A stretch of DNA of 28,224 bases from a virus. Its lineage: Duplodnaviria; Caudoviricetes. Within the stretch, counting starts at the first letter, position 1. Each line of letters begins with the position of its first letter. The notes below the pieces were generated by a model. It did not search any database. It was not told the origin of the DNA and saw only the letters and a list, made by a program, of their open reading frames with translations. Shown here one piece after another: positions 11,740 through 27,414 of the stretch. The stretch lies in the IMG/VR virus record IMGVR_UViG_3300022181_000145, positions 1 to 28,224 of that record; one strand, given 5' to 3'. Made by a program: the position numbers and the translations under genes.

Positions 11740-11869
11740 CCAGGTAAACGTAAATTAAGCTGGCGGATTGTATAAATTCACAGCCCGCTACCTTACTCAT
11801 CCTACTAAAAGAATGATTCTGGATTCTATATCGAACTCTATGTCAAACTATTTTTGGAGGGGTGTTGTA

Positions 11870-12568
11870 ATGATATTGGCAGAACGCGAAAACGGAATTT
11901 TTAATGAGTGGAAATCAAATCTTCCTCAAGAGCAACGGGTTAACTTTATACCTGACGGGATTGTCGATGAAAAGCGATGGAATGAAGCCAAAGTTAAAGT
12001 GCTGTACTTACTGAAAGAAGTAAATGGCGGAACCGATTGGGATGAGAGGGAGTATTTAGCCGGATACAATACGATTCCTGAATTCATTAATACTCATTCC
12101 CCATCCATAGACGCTTTGATTACATGGACATATGGATTAATGAACGGCAACCCGGATGAACTCTGGTCTAAGGTTCTGTCGACTACAGCAGATAAGGCGG
12201 TACAGAGTGCCTTGTTATCAGAAATCGGTGTTGTCAATTTCAAAAAGATATCTGGATTTGGTGTGACTGACTTAAAATCCTTAGATGCATTTGCTACGGA
12301 GTCATACAATCAAGAAATGCTTAGGAAGCAGTTGGCGCTCTATCATCCAGATGTTGTGGTCTGCGGCGGGACGGCATATTACTTAACTGCTCTTTATGAG
12401 GAAGACTTCGCTGCTAAAAAGTGGAACACTACAAACCGAGGCGTTCCATATGCAAAAAAGGAAAGCACAATATATATAGACTTTTGCCATCCTCTTATTC
12501 GAGCACCTAAAAATATGATTTACTATAGTTTACTTGATGCGGTAAAAGAAATTGAAGGGCTAAGATGA
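11870..12568 (+). CDS. Moron: hypothetical protein with uracil-DNA-glycosylase-superfamily-like motifs
   Basis: AT-rich insert between TAC and TMP; RBS GGAGG; motifs 'KVLYLLKEVNG', 'VVNFKK', 'LRKQLALYHPDVVVCGGT' and 'IDFCHP' occur in UDG-fold order. The CDS is well supported; the fold call is tentative. Confidence 0.7.
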   Translation: MILAERENGIFNEWKSNLPQEQRVNFIPDGIVDEKRWNEAKVKVLYLLKEVNGGTDWDEREYLAGYNTIPEFINTHSPSIDALITWTYGLMNGNPDELWSKVLSTTADKAVQSALLSEIGVVNFKKISGFGVTDLKSLDAFATESYNQEMLRKQLALYHPDVVVCGGTAYYLTALYEEDFAAKKWNTTNRGVPYAKKESTIYIDFCHPLIRAPKNMIYYSLLDAVKEIEGLR

Positions 12569-19166: not shown

Positions 19167-19206
19167 CTTGCTATTGCTACGGATTTGAGCGAATATGTCA
19201 TATACC
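19167..19206 (+). promoter_or_regulatory. Conserved promoter-like motif, copy 4 of 4
   Basis: CTTGCTAT-N8-ATTTGAG-CGAATATGTCATATACC upstream of recombinase 1. Confidence 0.55.
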
Positions 19207-19221
19207 GAGGAGGTGATAACA

Positions 19222-20526
19222 GTGGAACGTAAGGTAACAAAGGTCGAGTTTCAGATTCCCGCGCAGCCGGCAGCGAAGCGCGTGGCGGCATACGCACGCG
19301 TTTCCTCCGGCAAGGACGCTATGCTTCATTCGCTCTCGGCGCAGGTCAGCTACTACTCCGACTTTATCCAGCAACACCCCGGCTGGCTCTACTGCGGCGT
19401 GTATGCCGACGAAGCCCTGACTGGCACAAAGGACGACCGAGAGGGCTTTCAACGTCTGCTAGCTGAGTGCCGTGCCGGGAATGTGGACATGGTCATTACA
19501 AAGTCTATATCCCGTTTTGCCCGAAATACGGTAACGCTATTGGAAACAGTGCGGGAGCTGAAAAATCTGGGCGTAGACGTCTTCTTTGAAGAGCAGCACA
19601 TTCACACCGTTAGCGCCGAGGGCGAGCTGATGATGACCATACTGGCATCCTATGCCCAGGAAGAAAGCCTGTCAGCCAGCGAAAACCAAAAGTGGCGGAT
19701 CCAGCGGAATTTTGAGGAGGGAAAACCCTGGAACTGCACGATGTTAGGTTATCGGCAAAAGGATGGCTGGCCCGCAGTAGTGCCTGAGGAGGCAGAGATC
19801 GTCAGGGGTATTTATCACGACTACCTTTCCGGCCTAGGTGTTCAAGGCATTGCAAAAAAGCTAAATGAAAACGGCGTCCCGTCCCGCATGGGTAAAAATT
19901 GGAGCAGACATTGCATTAACGGGATATTGCGAAACCCAACCTATACAGGCTGCTTGCTCCTGCAGCGAAAGTACCGTGAAAACCATCTGACAAAACGGAC
20001 GCTTGACAACAAGGGTGAGCTTCCCATGTACAGCGTAGAAAATAGCCATGAGCCTATCATTGACAGAGAGATGTTCGATGCCGTGCAAGCGGAAATTGAG
20101 CGGCGAGCCAAAAAACACGCGCCCAAATCCAAGAAGCAGGACGTTTACTCTTTCACCGGCTTAATTACTTGCGGCCTCTGCGGTAAAAATTATCGCAGGA
20201 AGGTCACGGCCACGAGTCCAGTCTGGATCTGCTCAACTTACAACACGCTGGGTAAATCGTCCTGCCCATCCAAGCAGATACCGGAAGAAACGCTGCTATC
20301 CGAAACCGCCGCTGCGTTGGGACTACCAGCCTTTGACGATGATATATTTTCGGAACGCATTGAACGTATCGAGGTGCCGGAACCAAACCATCTGCTGTAT
20401 GTGTTTAAGGACGGAAACACAGTTCGGCGCGCGTGGCAAGACCGCTCCAGAGCGGAAAGCTGGACGCTGGAAATGAAAGAAACCGCAAGGCGGCGGGCTT
20501 CTCGGCAAAGGAGGGCAAGCAAATGA
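19222..20526 (+). CDS. Large serine recombinase 1
   Basis: Catalytic 'AAYARVSS', 'TKSISRFARN', recombinase domain 'HEPII', Zn ribbon 'CGLCG..C..C'; GTG start after GGAGGTGA. Confidence 0.92.
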   Translation: MERKVTKVEFQIPAQPAAKRVAAYARVSSGKDAMLHSLSAQVSYYSDFIQQHPGWLYCGVYADEALTGTKDDREGFQRLLAECRAGNVDMVITKSISRFARNTVTLLETVRELKNLGVDVFFEEQHIHTVSAEGELMMTILASYAQEESLSASENQKWRIQRNFEEGKPWNCTMLGYRQKDGWPAVVPEEAEIVRGIYHDYLSGLGVQGIAKKLNENGVPSRMGKNWSRHCINGILRNPTYTGCLLLQRKYRENHLTKRTLDNKGELPMYSVENSHEPIIDREMFDAVQAEIERRAKKHAPKSKKQDVYSFTGLITCGLCGKNYRRKVTATSPVWICSTYNTLGKSSCPSKQIPEETLLSETAAALGLPAFDDDIFSERIERIEVPEPNHLLYVFKDGNTVRRAWQDRSRAESWTLEMKETARRRASRQRRASK

Positions 20527-22109
20527 CAAAGACGGCGCGGTCGGTCACGGTCATCCCGCCGACCATCAATCCCATCACCCATTTGCCGGGCTTATCAGTA
20601 AGAAAGCGCCGTGTTGCCGGATATGCTCGTGTTTCCACCGATAAAGACGAGCAGTTCACCAGCTACGAAGCGCAGATCGACTATTATACACAATATATCA
20701 AGAGAAATCCCGAGTGGGAGTATGTGACCGTCTATACGGACGAGGGCCTATCCGGTTTGAATGCAAAAAAGCGCGAGGGCTTTAACCAGATGGTGGAAGA
20801 CGCCCTTGGGGGTAAGATAGACCTTATCGTCACCAAATCCGTCAGTCGATTTGCCCGAAACACAGTGGATAGCCTGGTTACCGTACGCAAATTGAAGGAA
20901 AAAGGCGTGGAGGTGTATTTTGAAAAAGAGCAAATTTTCACGCTTGACAGCAAGGGCGAACTGCTCATCACCATCATGTCCTCGCTGGCGCAAGAGGAGT
21001 CCCGCTCCATTTCCGAAAACGTCACCTGGGGTCAGCGCAAGCGGTTCTCGGACGGAAAGGTCAGTCTTCCGTACAGCCAGTTCCTCGGCTACGAACGTGG
21101 ACAGGACGGCATACCGCAGATCGTAGAGGAAGAAGCGGTGCTGGTCAGGCGTATTTATAATCTTTTCATGAGCGGAAAGACTGCCTGTGCGATAGCAAAA
21201 AAGCTTACCTCCGAAGGCATTCCTACACCAGCTGGCAAGGCAAAATGGCAGGTAAGCACGATTGAAAGCATCCTCACGAATGAGAAGTATAAGGGCGCTG
21301 CATTACTGCAAAAACGATTCACCGTTGATTTTCTTACAAAAACTATGAAGGTAAACGAGGGCGAGGTACCCCAATACTGGGTGGAACACTCCCATGAGCC
21401 GATCATACCTCCGGATGAATGGGATGTCGTTCAGAAGGAATTTGCACGGCGCAAGGCTCTGGGTCGCAGATACAGCGGGAACAACGTATTTTCTTCCCGC
21501 ATCGTCTGCGGCGACTGTGGAGCATTTTTCGGTTCCAAGGTTTGGAACTCCACCAGCAAATACCGCCGCACCATATGGCAGTGCAACGCTAAGTTCAAAA
21601 ACGAACATAAATGCATGACGCCCCATCTGGACGAGGAGCAGATTAAAATTCGCTTCCTCGCTGCCTTCGACACCCTGCTTGATTGCAAAGATGCTCTTCT
21701 GGAGAATTGCGAACAGGTTAGAGCTATGTATACAGACTGCTCCGCCATCGACACCGAGCTTGCTGAGCTGCTCCGTGAGATCGATGTAGTCACTGAGCTG
21801 ACGAGAAAGTGTATAGAAGAAAATGCCGTGAACATTCAAAGCCAGGATGAGTACCTTATCCGCTATAACTGCTACGTGGAACGGTACGATGCGGCAAAGG
21901 AAAAGGTAGAGGTGCTGGAGCAGGAGCGGACGCTGCGTTTAGCACGAGCGGACGCCTTTGACGCCTTCATCCAGACTGTAAAAGAGCTGGATACCGTCCC
22001 CTCCGAGTTTGACGATAAGTTGTGGCAAAAGACCATAGACGCAGTCACAGTAAGAAACGACGGAGTGCTGGTATTCAGATTCCAAAACGGAATGGAAATA
22101 GAAGGATAA
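20523..22109 (+). CDS. Large serine recombinase 2
   Basis: 'GYARVST', 'TKSVSRFARN', 'HEPII', Zn ribbon 'CGDCG', coiled coil; ATGA-coupled to recombinase 1. Confidence 0.93.
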   Translation: MTKTARSVTVIPPTINPITHLPGLSVRKRRVAGYARVSTDKDEQFTSYEAQIDYYTQYIKRNPEWEYVTVYTDEGLSGLNAKKREGFNQMVEDALGGKIDLIVTKSVSRFARNTVDSLVTVRKLKEKGVEVYFEKEQIFTLDSKGELLITIMSSLAQEESRSISENVTWGQRKRFSDGKVSLPYSQFLGYERGQDGIPQIVEEEAVLVRRIYNLFMSGKTACAIAKKLTSEGIPTPAGKAKWQVSTIESILTNEKYKGAALLQKRFTVDFLTKTMKVNEGEVPQYWVEHSHEPIIPPDEWDVVQKEFARRKALGRRYSGNNVFSSRIVCGDCGAFFGSKVWNSTSKYRRTIWQCNAKFKNEHKCMTPHLDEEQIKIRFLAAFDTLLDCKDALLENCEQVRAMYTDCSAIDTELAELLREIDVVTELTRKCIEENAVNIQSQDEYLIRYNCYVERYDAAKEKVEVLEQERTLRLARADAFDAFIQTVKELDTVPSEFDDKLWQKTIDAVTVRNDGVLVFRFQNGMEIEG

Positions 22110-22268: not shown

Positions 22269-22592
22269 TTATGCGGGGTTTTCTTTTTTAATCCCTACTG
22301 CATGCGATGATAACATATTTAGTGCATCCTGCTGCGCCCTCTCGTCCGCATTTCGCGCAGCAGACAAAAGAGCCTTCTCATACGCTGTCAATCTGGACGC
22401 ATCGGGCTTGGCTCTGCCGAAAATGTCATCAAGCGACACTTCAAAACAGTCTGCAATTTTTATGAGCATATCTATTGATGGTTCCCTATCTCCGGTCTCA
22501 TACCTTGAATAAACGACGGACGAGCAACCTATATAATCAGCAACGGCCTTTTGAGTAAGCCCTTTTGCCAGTCGAATTTCTTTCAAGTTCAT
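22269..22592 (-). CDS. XRE-family HTH repressor (CI/ImmR-like)
   Basis: 'LKEIRLAKGLTQKAVADYIGCS...SRYETGDREP...KIADCFEVSLDDIFGR'; RBS GGAGGTG. Confidence 0.92.
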   Translation of the reverse strand: MNLKEIRLAKGLTQKAVADYIGCSSVVYSRYETGDREPSIDMLIKIADCFEVSLDDIFGRAKPDASRLTAYEKALLSAARNADERAQQDALNMLSSHAVGIKKENPA

Positions 22593-22618
22593 GGTCACAC
22601 CTCCACGACTATATTTTA

Positions 22619-22709
22619 TTACCATATTGGCAACAAAGATATTACCGAATCGGTAACTTGACTCTTGACTATCTACCTTATTGGTAATATACTACTACCA
22701 TGTCGGTAA
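22619..22709. promoter_or_regulatory. Four 15-bp palindromic operators overlapping a sigmaA promoter
   Basis: YTACC-N5-GGYAA at 22619, 22642, 22673 and 22695; TTGACT(22665)-N17-TATACT(22688). Confidence 0.85.
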
Positions 22710-22725
22710 TACGGGGGTGCGGTGT

Positions 22726-22932
22726 ATGTGTGGTTTACGTACGATCAGGCAGCAACAAAAAATCTCACAAAAAGAACTTGCTAAAGCGACTGGCCTATCC
22801 GCAGCTAGCATCAGCCGATATGAAACTGGCGATAGAAAGTTATCCGTTGATGTTGCGAAGCGGCTGTCCGTAACCTTGAACATAAATTGGGCCTCTCTTT
22901 TCGACGAACAGATGGCAACAAAGGACGCATAA
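22726..22932 (+). CDS. XRE-family HTH protein (Cro-like)
   Basis: 'LRTIRQQQKISQKELAKATGLSAASISRYETGDRK'; divergent from the repressor. Confidence 0.88.
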   Translation: MCGLRTIRQQQKISQKELAKATGLSAASISRYETGDRKLSVDVAKRLSVTLNINWASLFDEQMATKDA

Positions 22933-22949
22933 GGCGGGTGACAGGCGAA

Positions 22950-23969
22950 ATGGGTGCAACTTTTGAATATGGGTACTTTTCATCTATCAAGCAGAAAAAG
23001 GTTGAGTGGCTATGGTACCCATATATACCGTATGGAAAACTCACGCTCCTTCAAGGTGATCCTGGAGAGGGCAAATCAACTTTCATTTTAAATGTTGCCG
23101 CGCTTCTGACAAGAGGCTCACCCATGCCAGACGGATATGAAGTGCCTACACCACAAACGGTAATATATCAATGCGCAGAGGACAGTATGGTTGATACCGT
23201 GAAGCCGAGACTGGTCGCCGCTGACGCTGACTGCGATAAGGTTGCATATATCGTTGATGAAACAGATCGGCTTACATTGGAAGATGACCGCATTGAAAAA
23301 GCAATCCTGCAAACAAAAGCCCGATTACTCATTCTTGATCCGCTGCAGGCATTTCTGTCTCAGGATGGCGATATGCAAAGTGCTGGCCGGATGCGCAATA
23401 TCCTCGGAAAGCTTTCATTGCTCGCGGCGAAGTATAATTGTGCCATCGTCTTGATTGGGCATATGAACAAAGGGAACGCCGGTAATAGCATATACCGTAG
23501 TCTTGGCAGTATTGATATTGCGGCGATAGCCAGAAGTGTGCTGATGATAAAAAGAGATGGAAAGGATTCGCAGGTACGATATATGATCCCCATAAAATCC
23601 AGCCTGTCGCCAGAGGGCACGGCGATTGCTTTTTCGCTCGGCGGAGAGGAAGGTTTTCAATGGCTGGGGCCGTGCGATTTAGACTTCTACGACATAGAGG
23701 AATGCCACACCCGGAAGAATGGAAAAAAGACCGATGTTGCTGATTGCCTTATAGAAATGCTAAGTGAGCATGATGTATTGAGCGCTGATATTCTCTCCGA
23801 AATGAGCCAGCTTGGCGTGTCTCGGAGGACGGTGTTCAACGCAAAAAAGGAAGTCGGTGTTCAAGCATACCGGAAAAATAATGCCTGGTATTGGCGGTTA
23901 CCTAAAACACGCCTGGACGACGGCGTTGACGGAATAATGCAAAGCTGTGATACAGTGGAACGAGGTTAA
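22950..23969 (+). CDS. AAA_25/RepA-like (RecA-fold) ATPase, putative helicase, with C-terminal HTH-like region
   Basis: 'VEWLWYPYIPYGKLTLLQGDPGEGKST' (Walker A), 'LLILDP' (Walker B), 'LIGHMNK', 'GSIDIAAIARSVL'. Confidence 0.88.
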   Translation: MGATFEYGYFSSIKQKKVEWLWYPYIPYGKLTLLQGDPGEGKSTFILNVAALLTRGSPMPDGYEVPTPQTVIYQCAEDSMVDTVKPRLVAADADCDKVAYIVDETDRLTLEDDRIEKAILQTKARLLILDPLQAFLSQDGDMQSAGRMRNILGKLSLLAAKYNCAIVLIGHMNKGNAGNSIYRSLGSIDIAAIARSVLMIKRDGKDSQVRYMIPIKSSLSPEGTAIAFSLGGEEGFQWLGPCDLDFYDIEECHTRKNGKKTDVADCLIEMLSEHDVLSADILSEMSQLGVSRRTVFNAKKEVGVQAYRKNNAWYWRLPKTRLDDGVDGIMQSCDTVERG

Positions 23970-23974
23970 CCACA

Positions 23975-25810
23975 ATGAAAAATGATGAGGGCAGAGAACA
24001 AATACGTCAGATTTATCGGCGAGAAGAACCTGGGGAAAAGGTGTTTATTCCGGCAAAGCCGAAAATAGATATTTTTGAGGGCGGGAGGATATTCCGAATA
24101 TGTGCCTATTGTCGCGTTTCAACGGACAATGATGCGCAATTATCCTCTTACGAGTTACAGCAAGGCCATTATACCCAAGTTGCTGAGAGCCATCCCAACT
24201 GGGATCTAAAGCGAATATTCGCGGACGAGGGGATTTCCGGCACTTCTCTTAAAAACAGAGATGAGTTCAACGCAATGATCGCTGCCTGCGAAGCTGGAGA
24301 ATATGACCTAATCGTAACAAAGAGCGTTTCCCGTTTTGCAAGGAATTTGGTGGACTGCATCTCTCTGGTACGCAAGCTAAAGAGACTGAATCCACCCGTG
24401 GGTGTAATCTTTGAAACCGATAATCTTAATACGCTCTCCGAGGATTCCGAACTGATGCTATCCTTCCTTGCAACATTTGCTCAGGAGGAGTCAGTAAAGA
24501 AAAGTGAGAGTATGCTTTGGTCGCTCAAGGAGCGCAATAAATCTGGGAAGCTGCTTACCCCGGCATTGCTCGGATATGAGCGGCCTAGAGATGAAGTCGG
24601 ACGGTATATCAAATACGCACCGCTTCAAATTGTTGAATCGGAGGCGGATATCGTCCGTTTCATATTTAATGCTTTTCTTGCTGGGCGGTCGACCACCGAT
24701 ATTGCTACACTGCTCACGGATATACAGTGCCAGACAAAGACAGGCAGCACAGAGTGGAATGAAGGCTCAATCAATTACATACTGAAAAACGAACGATACT
24801 GCGGAAATGTTCTCACGTGGAAAACCTTTACCGCAGATTTGTATGAGCACAAGCACAAAAGGAATCGGCAAGACCGCGATCAATATTTGTATGTCAATCA
24901 TCATGAGGCAATTATATCTGTAGAAAAATTTGAGGCAGTGCAGGTACTGCTTGCAAATAAAAAGCACCATGTTCGCGGCGGTCTCCCTGTTATGCAGGTT
25001 ATTGAGGATGGAATATTCAGAGGGTTTGTTCCGGTTAATCACCATTGGCTGAACGATGACCCCAACACCTATTATGATGCATCAAACAGCGTAGAAAATA
25101 AAAATGCCCTAAAAAGAATCCGCAGAAGAGACTTCAGCGCTTTCAACCTTGAAGGCTATCAGGTGGTGCGTGGTCAGTTCCTGACCGCAAGGTATGAATG
25201 CCCAAGTATCACGATAGCAAAAGAGCGGATTTCTTTTAACGTCAACTGTATGAGAAAGTTTTTCGATGTGCCGTATATTCAACTGCTGCTTCACCCAACA
25301 GAAAGAAAAATCGCCATACGCCCATGTAATGAAAGCGATGTCCATAGTATCAGATGGCGTGTGGATACGGAAAAACCTTTGTCCACCAAAACAATAAGCT
25401 GCCCGCATTTTGGTAACGCTCTGTTCCAGATTATGGGCTGGAATCCGGACTTCTTATACCGAATACGCGGAACCTGGGCTGCAAGGGACTGCGACGAGAT
25501 TATTGTGTTCAACCTTACTAACGCTGCCCCAGCGGCATACATAAACAATAGTATTAAGGCAAGCGGAAGCATCCACCGGAAAAGGGTATCACTTTGCCCA
25601 GAAGAATGGAGTGATACGTTTGGGCAGGAATTCTACGATTATGGTGTTCAAAACGGGTTCTTTTTTATCGCTCGCAATTATGACTGGAAAGCACAGTCAA
25701 AAGCGATTACGATTCCTGGTCTTGAAAACACCACTGTGCTATCTGCGGACGAGCTGCAAATGACCATAGAAAACTTACGATTGAGGGTGGGGCCTGCTCA
25801 TGGAGAATAA
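23975..25810 (+). CDS. Large serine recombinase 3 with an atypical C-terminal domain
   Basis: 'CAYCRVST', 'TKSVSRFARN', 'NERYCG', 'HEAII'; no CxxC Zn ribbon; C-terminal domain homologous to the three downstream ORFs. Confidence 0.9.
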   Translation: MKNDEGREQIRQIYRREEPGEKVFIPAKPKIDIFEGGRIFRICAYCRVSTDNDAQLSSYELQQGHYTQVAESHPNWDLKRIFADEGISGTSLKNRDEFNAMIAACEAGEYDLIVTKSVSRFARNLVDCISLVRKLKRLNPPVGVIFETDNLNTLSEDSELMLSFLATFAQEESVKKSESMLWSLKERNKSGKLLTPALLGYERPRDEVGRYIKYAPLQIVESEADIVRFIFNAFLAGRSTTDIATLLTDIQCQTKTGSTEWNEGSINYILKNERYCGNVLTWKTFTADLYEHKHKRNRQDRDQYLYVNHHEAIISVEKFEAVQVLLANKKHHVRGGLPVMQVIEDGIFRGFVPVNHHWLNDDPNTYYDASNSVENKNALKRIRRRDFSAFNLEGYQVVRGQFLTARYECPSITIAKERISFNVNCMRKFFDVPYIQLLLHPTERKIAIRPCNESDVHSIRWRVDTEKPLSTKTISCPHFGNALFQIMGWNPDFLYRIRGTWAARDCDEIIVFNLTNAAPAAYINNSIKASGSIHRKRVSLCPEEWSDTFGQEFYDYGVQNGFFFIARNYDWKAQSKAITIPGLENTTVLSADELQMTIENLRLRVGPAHGE

Positions 25811-26396
25811 CAAAGTGCAATACCTGTTGGAGAACAGTAAGCCGATAGAAGAAGCATTGGACGAAGAAATTGTCGACCTTGCCGGATACCAAGTCACAAA
25901 GGCGGAGCTTTTTGCCCATACCCGCGAACCGGCTGTTACCATATGGGAAAATCGCCTGAAATTCAATATGGCCTGTCTGCGCCGATTCCCAGGAGTAACG
26001 CATATCCAGATCTTGATTCACCCGGAGCAGAAGCGGCTCATCATTCGCCCCTGCGATCCAGACACTCCCGATTCTCTGCGATGGGCAATTGGAGGAGGAG
26101 AAAAGGAAATAAAAAACCGAGATCTCCTGTGTAAAGTCTTTTCGGCAAGAGTTTTCGACTTTATGCAATGGAGTCCTCAGTATCGCTATAAGCTGCTGGG
26201 AAAACCGGCTACTTGCGACGGCGAAGTCCTGTTTATGTTCAAGCTAACGGATTTCGAGTTGTTCGTTAGCGGCAAGCGGAAAGGCTCCTTCTTGCCTGAG
26301 GAGTGGCGCAATTACTTTGGAATCCCGGTCGAGCAGCATGAACAGGCATACAAAGTTGACCTCGCAGACGGTTATATAACAACCGACAGAGTATAG
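25800..26396 (+). CDS. Hypothetical protein, paralog of the recombinase-3 C-terminal domain
   Basis: 'LAGYQV..PAVTI..FNMAC..IHP..IRPC..SLRW..PEEW..FG'; overlaps the recombinase end by 11 nt. Confidence 0.85.
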   Translation: MENNKVQYLLENSKPIEEALDEEIVDLAGYQVTKAELFAHTREPAVTIWENRLKFNMACLRRFPGVTHIQILIHPEQKRLIIRPCDPDTPDSLRWAIGGGEKEIKNRDLLCKVFSARVFDFMQWSPQYRYKLLGKPATCDGEVLFMFKLTDFELFVSGKRKGSFLPEEWRNYFGIPVEQHEQAYKVDLADGYITTDRV

Positions 26397-26409
26397 AGGA
26401 GGTACCAAA

Positions 26410-26856
26410 GTGCAGGATGACTTCAACATAAACGAGATCAGTCTTGATGGTTTCCAAGTTGTTAGAGGACAGTATTTCAGCCGCCAGCTTGAACCATCGT
26501 TCACCATTTGGTACAGCAGTGTTTCTTTTAATACCGCCGCTTTTAACGCTCTCAATAACTGCGAATCGATTTCGATAATGGTGAACAACAACACTCGGTG
26601 TGTAATAATAAAGCCAATCCCGTCCAAAGACAGGGATGCAATAAGCTGGCTTAAACCGCCGGACAGTAAGAAGTACCGGAAACTGGAATGCTCAAAATTT
26701 ACCCATCAGCTATATGATTTATGGGGCATGGACAAAGAATTGCATTACCGTACCAATGGCAGACTTGTCAAGGCCGATAAGAAACTTATGCTGCTATTCG
26801 ATTTTTCCAAGCCGGAAGCATGGCGTGGGGTGAAGATGGTGAGTGACTTTGAGTGA
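26410..26856 (+). CDS. Hypothetical protein, paralog of the same domain
   Basis: 'LDGFQVVRGQYF..PSFTI..FNTAA..IKP..ISW..CSKF..YR..G..LFDFS'; RBS GGAGG, GTG start. Confidence 0.85.
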   Translation: MQDDFNINEISLDGFQVVRGQYFSRQLEPSFTIWYSSVSFNTAAFNALNNCESISIMVNNNTRCVIIKPIPSKDRDAISWLKPPDSKKYRKLECSKFTHQLYDLWGMDKELHYRTNGRLVKADKKLMLLFDFSKPEAWRGVKMVSDFE

Positions 26857-27229
26857 AAATACTTGCATTTCGTTTTATCTCAACGAGAATAAAATACACG
26901 TATTTTGCGATACCGTAAGAGCTATCGGAGAACCACCATATGTTCGCTTTCTGTTAAATGCAGATGGCACATCAATGATTATGGCGCCTTATAATAAAAA
27001 AGAGTTTCAGTCTATGCGTGTGCCAAAAGCGGTGTACAATAAAACCGGGAAGATGGAGTTTCGCAGCGTCGGCTTCTGTAGGCTACTCTCACACAGGCTC
27101 GGTTGGGAACAAGGGCATTCATATCGCATCCCAGGTAAAGTTCTAATAAAGCAGAGCCTGGTTTTGTTTGATTTGACGTGCGCCGTGAAGATTGGGGTTG
27201 TTGCTGGCGTTGAGGCAGCGCAACGATGA
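26843..27229 (+). CDS. Hypothetical protein, more divergent paralog of the same domain
   Basis: 'PYVRFLLN..MAP..S.GF..LGW..SYRIPG..VLFDLT'; overlaps the previous gene by 14 nt. Confidence 0.7.
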   Translation: MTLSENTCISFYLNENKIHVFCDTVRAIGEPPYVRFLLNADGTSMIMAPYNKKEFQSMRVPKAVYNKTGKMEFRSVGFCRLLSHRLGWEQGHSYRIPGKVLIKQSLVLFDLTCAVKIGVVAGVEAAQR

Positions 27230-27414
27230 TTTAGCTTGCCATGTATACTAACCGATCTGGTCGAGTACAGCGAACTTTTCGAACAGGGTGCGAACGCCAA
27301 GGGGGCTTCGACCGATAACCCAGTAGTAGCTAAAGTCACCAAATCTATATCTACATCTACGCATAATAAAATGCCTCACATTAAAGAAAACAGAGATTTA
27401 GTCCAGGAAGCGTT

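Follow-up and report, generated by a model that had tools for sequence, protein, structure and literature searches.

The 28,224-nucleotide (nt) window analysed here, positions 1 to 28,224 of the IMG/VR virus record IMGVR_UViG_3300022181_000145 (Duplodnaviria; Caudoviricetes), carries four consecutive genes, LSR3-A-B-C, which form a real, conserved and uncharacterised architecture. LSR3 is a large serine recombinase (LSR) in which, judging by its sequence, the serine-recombinase active site is intact and the first DNA-binding domain, the recombinase domain, is retained. Where the second DNA-binding domain and the coiled coil would be, it has an uncharacterised alpha/beta domain, compact and basic, and the gene is followed by two or three free, translationally coupled paralogs of its own terminal domain. 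A search of the main texts of the literature returned no description of the cassette; members may stand in supplementary LSR catalogues. We put at about even the chance that LSR3-A-B-C is a hetero-oligomeric, inducible serine-recombinase module, co-inherited, of clostridial phages and islands.

Composition of LSR3 and of the cassette

LSR3 (23975..25810, + strand; 611 amino acids, aa) consists of catalytic and recombinase domains, a linker, the novel domain and a tail. Its Pfam domains are Resolvase (PF00239, aa 43-192) and Recombinase (PF07508, aa 222-327, E 3e-23), the latter being DBD1, the first DNA-binding domain; the catalytic serine, Ser49 (codon 24119-24121), lies within the motif CRVST. 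This motif and SRFAR are invariant in all 73 full-length LSR3 homologs, the window's included, and the linker (aa ~331-390) is conserved. The canonical integrases (phiC31, Bxb1, A118/LI, SPbeta SprA) likewise have an N-terminal serine catalytic domain and DBD1, but they also have DBD2 (a zinc domain) and a coiled coil, in place of which LSR3 has an unrelated domain and two to three free paralogs.

The first-pass annotation of this DNA had reported that LSR3 lacks the zinc ribbon and coiled coil and that the neighbouring LSR1 and LSR2 have the zinc ribbon; Pfam, the count of CxxC motifs and hhalign all agree. The Pfam search matched Zn_ribbon_recom (PF13408) in both LSR1 and LSR2 and not in LSR3, no CxxC is present beyond residue 250 in 72 of the 73 full-length LSR3 proteins, and LSR3 beyond residue ~333 gives hhalign values of 0.1-0.2% against the zinc-ribbon/coiled-coil (DBD2) region of 38 canonical LSRs from fetched loci. 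A crude heptad score is 1.10 for LSR3, compared with 1.43 and 1.57 for LSR1 and LSR2 (family medians 1.23 versus 1.50, with overlapping ranges). On these sequence data LSR3 would work like a serine recombinase, yet it is not a canonical serine integrase, which would have both DBD2 and the coiled coil.

The copy of the repeated domain borne by LSR3, denoted R (25145..25534, + strand), spans residues ~391-520 and is followed by a PEEW..FG motif. Gene A (25800..26396, + strand; 198 aa) is the most conserved paralog and has both an N-terminal arm and a PEEW..FG tail; gene B (26410..26856, + strand; 148 aa) is missing from a three-copy subfamily (see below); and gene C (26843..27229, + strand; 128 aa) is the minimal, most divergent paralog, without the arm and the tail. 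All four reading frames lie where they had first been placed. Their overlapping or abutting arrangement was also correctly described: LSR3 and A overlap by 11 nt, A and B are 13 nt apart, with a GGAGG site, and B and C overlap by 14 nt.

The repeated domain

The ~125-aa terminal domain of LSR3 recurs in genes A, B and, as had been claimed, more weakly in C. Scored against 2000 shuffles, the LSR3 domain gives z 49 with A, z 23 with B and z 11 with C; between the free paralogs the values are z 25 for A-B, z 4.7 for A-C and z 2.7 for B-C, a score which 37 of the 2000 shuffles reached. The weak A-C and B-C pairs become clear once family profiles are used, the profile matches to the LSR3 domain being 98.5% for C (E 3e-15), 97.7% for B and 96.6% for A. 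The copies differ in their extensions: an N-terminal GYQVV arm is common to R, A and B and is not found in C, and the PEEW..FG tail is present only in LSR3 (copy R) and A. A Cys/His metal site was considered for R and A and rejected, since B, C and the second subfamily have not retained its residues.

The domain has no family match in Pfam, NCBIfam or PADLOC. PHROG matches are weak and functionally unannotated (phrog_1799, E 0.014-0.14), sequence searches of the PDB gave chance matches only, and in the ESM Atlas B led to unnamed clusters only and C to no usable named match. With the domain as a profile, a search at E≤0.001 collected 3,215 clusters (50% identity), and the top 150 of these are of the R, A, B or C types. 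It is a large unannotated family without a clear solved structure. Of the objections that computation could raise to the first-pass annotation, namely a lack of similarity among the copies, a neighbourhood that is not conserved and membership of one of the characterised families searched, none was borne out.

Gene B was modelled with AlphaFold2 from 87 rows (predicted local distance difference test, pLDDT, 90; predicted template modelling score, pTM, 0.77). The model consists of strands and two main helices, with the order strand-strand-helix-strand-strand occurring twice. Among 48,161 solved chains its best structural neighbour is MraZ (1n0e; Z 3.7, root-mean-square deviation, rmsd, 3.9 over 88 aligned residues); four B3 DNA-binding domains are listed at Z 2.2-2.5, and no chain reaches Z 5. 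Foldseek returned nothing at E≤0.001, and its PCNA rows have an rmsd of ~17. The AbrB/MraZ/B3 barrels, a likeness guessed ahead of the structural search, share with the B model the doubled two-strand/helix/two-strand layout and a basic character, but the structural scores are weak and sequence comparison lends the likeness no clear support. The first half of the domain alone gives 21-32% against AbrB in two of five alignments, with no half-to-half match. The contacts that covariation suggests (657 sequences, effective number 283), hairpins and cross-contacts, would fit a two-fold barrel, in a noisy signal with that of the paralogs mixed in. The core domains are basic (median isoelectric point 8.7-9.5), and the confident model is of an alpha/beta fold to which no solved structure is clearly related.

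Conservation of the gene order

Loci were gathered by searching with gene A (9 viral and 80 genome loci, 89 in all, with 80 of 88 confirmed matches kept), A being present by construction. By their titles, most are from Clostridia. The LSR3 domain lies immediately 5′ of A in 80 of the 85 loci with enough DNA, and two of the five misses are LSR3-A fusions; B follows A in 86/86 loci and C is present in 79/84. Of the AAA-LSR-three-paralog order suggested by the first-pass annotation, the LSR3-A-B-C part is therefore nearly fixed, while the AAA gene is optional (36/63 loci); a helix-turn-helix (HTH) gene lies upstream in 57/64. The four-copy array likewise holds at most loci but not throughout, given the three-copy subfamily. 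Of the 39 long loci, 27 have another LSR of at least 400 aa.

When 151 domain rows, taken from 39 chosen loci, are placed in a quick tree, the gene positions R, A, B and C fall into separate clades, each with 33 rows and with quick-tree support of 91, 99, 99 and 99. These position-specific clades indicate that the array is old and, as far as sequences can tell, it is also selected. Pairwise distances correlate more strongly inside the cassette (Spearman 0.80-0.92) than with LSR2 (0.65-0.80) over the same 13 loci, and more strongly than with LSR1 as well, the pairs in both comparisons not being independent. Gene A has a median identity of 70% to its relatives, and 55-88% among the matches listed. 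This retention, the depth of the position-specific clades and the invariant catalytic residues make it very hard to believe that the paralogs arose neutrally, through tandem duplication or the decay of an integrase tail, even if some copies are indeed broken or lost.

In the closest relative (L011, 9440-11200) an unrelated gene block of ~1.7 kb is located between A and B. Two loci contain a fifth copy of the domain, either an extra C or a divergent copy (L043:11438-11870 and L048:6520-).

Variant arrangements

Gene A was matched in 23 of 50,697 phage records; the four examined are Ca. Heliusvirales and have a three-copy form, with the order HTH-LSR′-A′-C′ followed by a ~320-aa gene and then by DUF6551. 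The ~320-aa gene is ParB-like on reading its sequence and has no Pfam match; DUF6551-containing ParB-fold proteins bind CTP or ATP, as given in part of the account in bioRxiv 10.1101/2025.10.10.680097. In two of the four records this form directly faces an annotated LSR pair. The portion of the Heliusvirales paper covered by the terms searched (PMC11283538) does not discuss the cassette genes. The three-copy form also occurs in G028, G032 and G330, the subfamily being found in gut phages, and G372 has the order AAA-LSR-A′-C′ with an interrupted A′.

The ParB-like nucleoside triphosphate (NTP)-binding proteins added in this second subfamily, and a location in an accessory region beside phosphoesterase-like and other cargo genes, could suggest that LSR3 is a repurposed DNA-cleaving or rearranging effector of a defence or counter-defence module, with A, B and C as sensors. 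We regard this as improbable: PADLOC (2023 library) gave no match for LSR3, A, B or C at E≤1, and the recombinase architecture is retained in full, down to the recombinase domain.

Two natural rearrangements join and divide the cassette proteins. An 813-aa LSR3-A fusion, present in two Acutalibacter-group assemblies, arises by the loss of 1 nt at the gene overlap; in an alignment made with the fusion protein nearly all rows fell on one half. Conversely, G482 (L312) has a natural split: its 396-aa LSR ends at the LSR3 linker motif, and a gene for the free domain overlaps that of the LSR. Among 401 sampled genomes of the phylum there were nine matches, namely three multi-copy cassettes, one split form and five single copies. 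Two-domain matches P0143, P0144 and P0146 are single-contig records and were left out of the evidence, and a search for longer C-like proteins gave one match among 8000 candidates.

The single-copy homologs (L311:6017-6460, L313:1461-1889, L314:822-1202, L315:4814-5239 and L316:5071-5394; no Pfam family) occur in a polysaccharide cluster, between fapR-like and ftsK-like genes, and near aspS/trxA-like (housekeeping) genes. Directly 5′ of one three-copy LSR is a resolvase-like gene (L272:6994-7623; 209 aa) whose catalytic motif is degenerate. An insert of ~25 kb, with polysaccharide genes and a canonical LSR, interrupts the LSR3 gene of G005 (L129:2604-2888, L070:8446-), and L008 has a comparable partial duplication of LSR2; LSR genes may themselves be integration targets.

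A proposed multi-subunit recombinase

In canonical LSRs, DBD2 positions the coiled coil that decides synapsis, and recombination directionality factors (RDFs) bind at that junction, as outlined in passages of PMC12286644 and PMC6002521; in the former, DBD2 and the coiled coil are said to set directionality and to bind RDFs, which have no common fold. Since LSR3 is without DBD2 and the coiled coil yet has kept its active site, something else must do their job, and the evident candidates would be the replacing domain and the coupled paralogs. Known RDFs are, to our knowledge, not paralogs of any integrase domain. The best reading is that the paralogs stand in for the zinc-ribbon/coiled-coil module in a multi-subunit serine recombinase. 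The free paralogs would bind the LSR3-borne copy and one another, the self-association of a single ancestral domain having turned into a hetero-oligomer; the assembly would be a DNA-binding scaffold doing the work of zinc ribbon, coiled coil and RDF, reading the outer part of the site and choosing which sites synapse. The divergent HTH pair might switch the module on for an auxiliary reaction, which could be excision, resolution or re-insertion of the element once induced; the module might act beside a canonical integrase rather than as the only integrase of the element.

A hetero-oligomer is favoured because of the fixed order, the fusion and fission of the proteins and the stepwise loss of arm and tail. 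The order, the position-specific clades and the natural fusion and split forms, sequence features all, are consistent with a joint function. Further points in favour are the invariant catalytic motifs, the co-varying distances, the basic domains, the weak likeness to the DNA-binding MraZ and B3 proteins, the upstream HTH gene, the frequent second LSR and, in the Acutalibacter-group element, a crossover site abutted by the canonical LSR and not by LSR3.

Several observations weigh against the proposed module. There is no other LSR nearby in 12 of the 39 long loci, which fits LSR3 acting alone; C is missing in 5/84 loci and B from the entire second subfamily; some genomes (G005, G001) have LSR3 in split or truncated form; and a frameshift tolerated by a single lineage may account for the LSR3-A fusion. 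Within 700 bp 3′ of C, no att-like inverted repeat is conserved across the loci. The resemblance of the B model to MraZ and B3 lies below the noise level of the structural tool, and whole-domain sequence profiles reach only 6% against AbrB and 4% against MraZ. Finally, the five single-copy distant homologs of the 401-genome sample have no recombinase gene in their fetched flanks, and two of them are acidic.

Such stand-alone chromosomal homologs without an LSR, together with the basic domains and the weak MraZ/B3 likeness, would be in keeping with paralogs that bind DNA on their own account, as accessory proteins or regulators (benders of the Xis/HU kind, or transcription regulators like AbrB/MraZ), acting on flanking DNA without binding LSR3. 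We consider this unlikely, as the fixed order, the position-specific clades and the fusion and split forms are more typical of subunits, and it is subunit-like too that the last gene in particular has lost the arm and the tail.

If the paralogs are subunits, the cassette could represent a distinct class of serine recombinase, whose target specificity and directionality would be set by three or four paralogous barrel domains joined in a hetero-oligomer; we suggest this tentatively, doubting it rather more than we credit it. It is with equal reserve that we picture one domain of this class as enzyme-borne and the others as free, with an ATPase or ParB-like NTP switches in a regulatory role in some lineages. 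Specificity in such a class could be changed by swapping small subunits and not the enzyme. The directionality model of serine integrases rests on DBD2 and the coiled coil, and a widespread, catalytically conserved clade without them must recognise and synapse its sites otherwise; the four-gene operon makes such an alternative directly testable. Should the small paralogs carry the specificity, they would offer a modular recombinase of interest for genome engineering.

Putative switch region and element ends

Upstream of the cassette, an Xre-type HTH gene that is repressor-like (22269..22625, − strand) is divergent from another in a Cro-like position (22681..22932, + strand), the first gene of the operon. 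Between them are four imperfect palindromes, probable operators identified by consensus match only (22617..22712, no strand; TACC-N5/6-GGTAA type), which overlap a promoter-like TTGACT-17-TATACT at 22665-22693. From its sequence, this region would form a repressor/Cro switch. The operon continues with an AAA_25 (RecA/DnaB-like) ATPase gene (22887..23969, + strand), 5 nt upstream of LSR3 and optional in relatives. The CcrA/B/C recombinases of SCCmec, also LSRs, are encoded in an operon between a helicase-like gene on the upstream side and small genes on the downstream side. The context of LSR3 resembles theirs; the small genes of LSR3, however, are paralogs of the recombinase's own domain. LSR3 scores 42.7-90.8 bits against the NCBIfam CcrA/B/C models and does not reach their cut-offs of 700-900.

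In the contigs of four runs there is no junction at the cassette. In seven Acutalibacter-group loci (L058/L059/L062/L063/L065/L067/L068) an element has the cassette at one end, and a canonical LSR abuts the other; the element is ~9 kb where both ends are seen (in L058, for example, at ~7200 and ~16220). It splits a gene (..KSTVH|KDV..; shared overlap TACATA) and is a probable gene-intervening element; from its translation, we take the split gene to be a spoIIID-like sporulation gene. The inferred circle junction is a CA-centred palindrome. With a canonical LSR at the crossover site and a CA-centred junction, the canonical enzyme is likelier than LSR3 to be the integrase there. The gin element of Bacillus cereus, in which GirA/B are dispensable and GirC and GirX active, is comparable to this spoIIID-like interrupting element as a composite with recombinases beyond the excising one, but the portion of its description available (PMC5595907) includes no repeated accessory domain like that of the LSR3 cassette.

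A 53.6-kb tandem array in G001, at the 3′ end of the tmRNA gene and bounded by 2-bp CA crossover sites, has no recombinase other than that of the cassette. Such a case, and the absence of a second LSR in 12 of the 39 long loci, would suit the idea that HTH-(AAA)-LSR3-A-B-C serves a satellite-like hitchhiker as its own, autonomous means of integration, with A, B and C selecting targets beside the integrases of other elements. The repressor/Cro-like switch and helicase-like ATPase would suit it as well, as would the presence of the cassette in phages, integrative and conjugative element (ICE)-like and gene-interrupting elements and in both orientations next to LSR pairs. Nevertheless, diverged pairs of loci (L002/L007, 9.6 kb at 82%; window/L011, 6.1 kb at 77%) remain similar in DNA without a break from LSR1/2 across the cassette, no shared ends were found, and some match to the G001 site type is present in 74 of 222 genomes of the genus compared with the cassette in 6 of 151. 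On balance we find a hitchhiker rather unlikely, a shade more so than independent accessory proteins.

Because the site family is so much commoner than the cassette, the site cannot be assigned to LSR3; a CA-centred site 439 bp after C in G001, considered as the LSR3 attP, was dropped, the family being common without the cassette. A metagenome scan with a 19-mer gave 120 stretches, none of the 80 with fetched DNA having the repeated domain. A family of islands in the G001 genus uses as insertion points the CCA ends of a wide variety of tRNAs and of the tmRNA, with CA as the 2-bp overlap and an inverted repeat at the junction, and forms tandem arrays (L036:11800-12000; L131-L150, L275-L294); most of the right ends examined have no LSR within 5 kb.

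Layout of the window

The remainder of the window is the late region of a temperate siphophage, with terminase, portal, ClpP, capsid, tail, holin and amidase genes. Among the tail genes is a low-GC accessory gene of 266 aa (11768-12568), without a Pfam or PADLOC match. On the 3′ side of the late region are two canonical zinc-ribbon LSRs of the prophage, LSR1 (19195..20526, + strand) and LSR2 (20433..22109, + strand), both with Zn_ribbon_recom matches, and then the divergent Xre HTH pair, the AAA_25 ATPase and LSR3, A, B and C. The streptococcal ICE triplets are similar in having three serine recombinases at the element end with position-specific clades. As described in part of PMC4701971, these are three adjacent, co-oriented LSR genes, whereas LSR3 of the window is set apart by 1.87 kb of HTH/AAA genes after LSR2; unlike the triplets, LSR3 has a paralog operon, often has no LSR pair beside it and, in the second subfamily, faces the pair convergently. 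Gene C is followed by an lgt-like gene on the opposite strand, and at 27249-27343 by a short stretch that resembles a gene remnant and runs into different sequence in one run.

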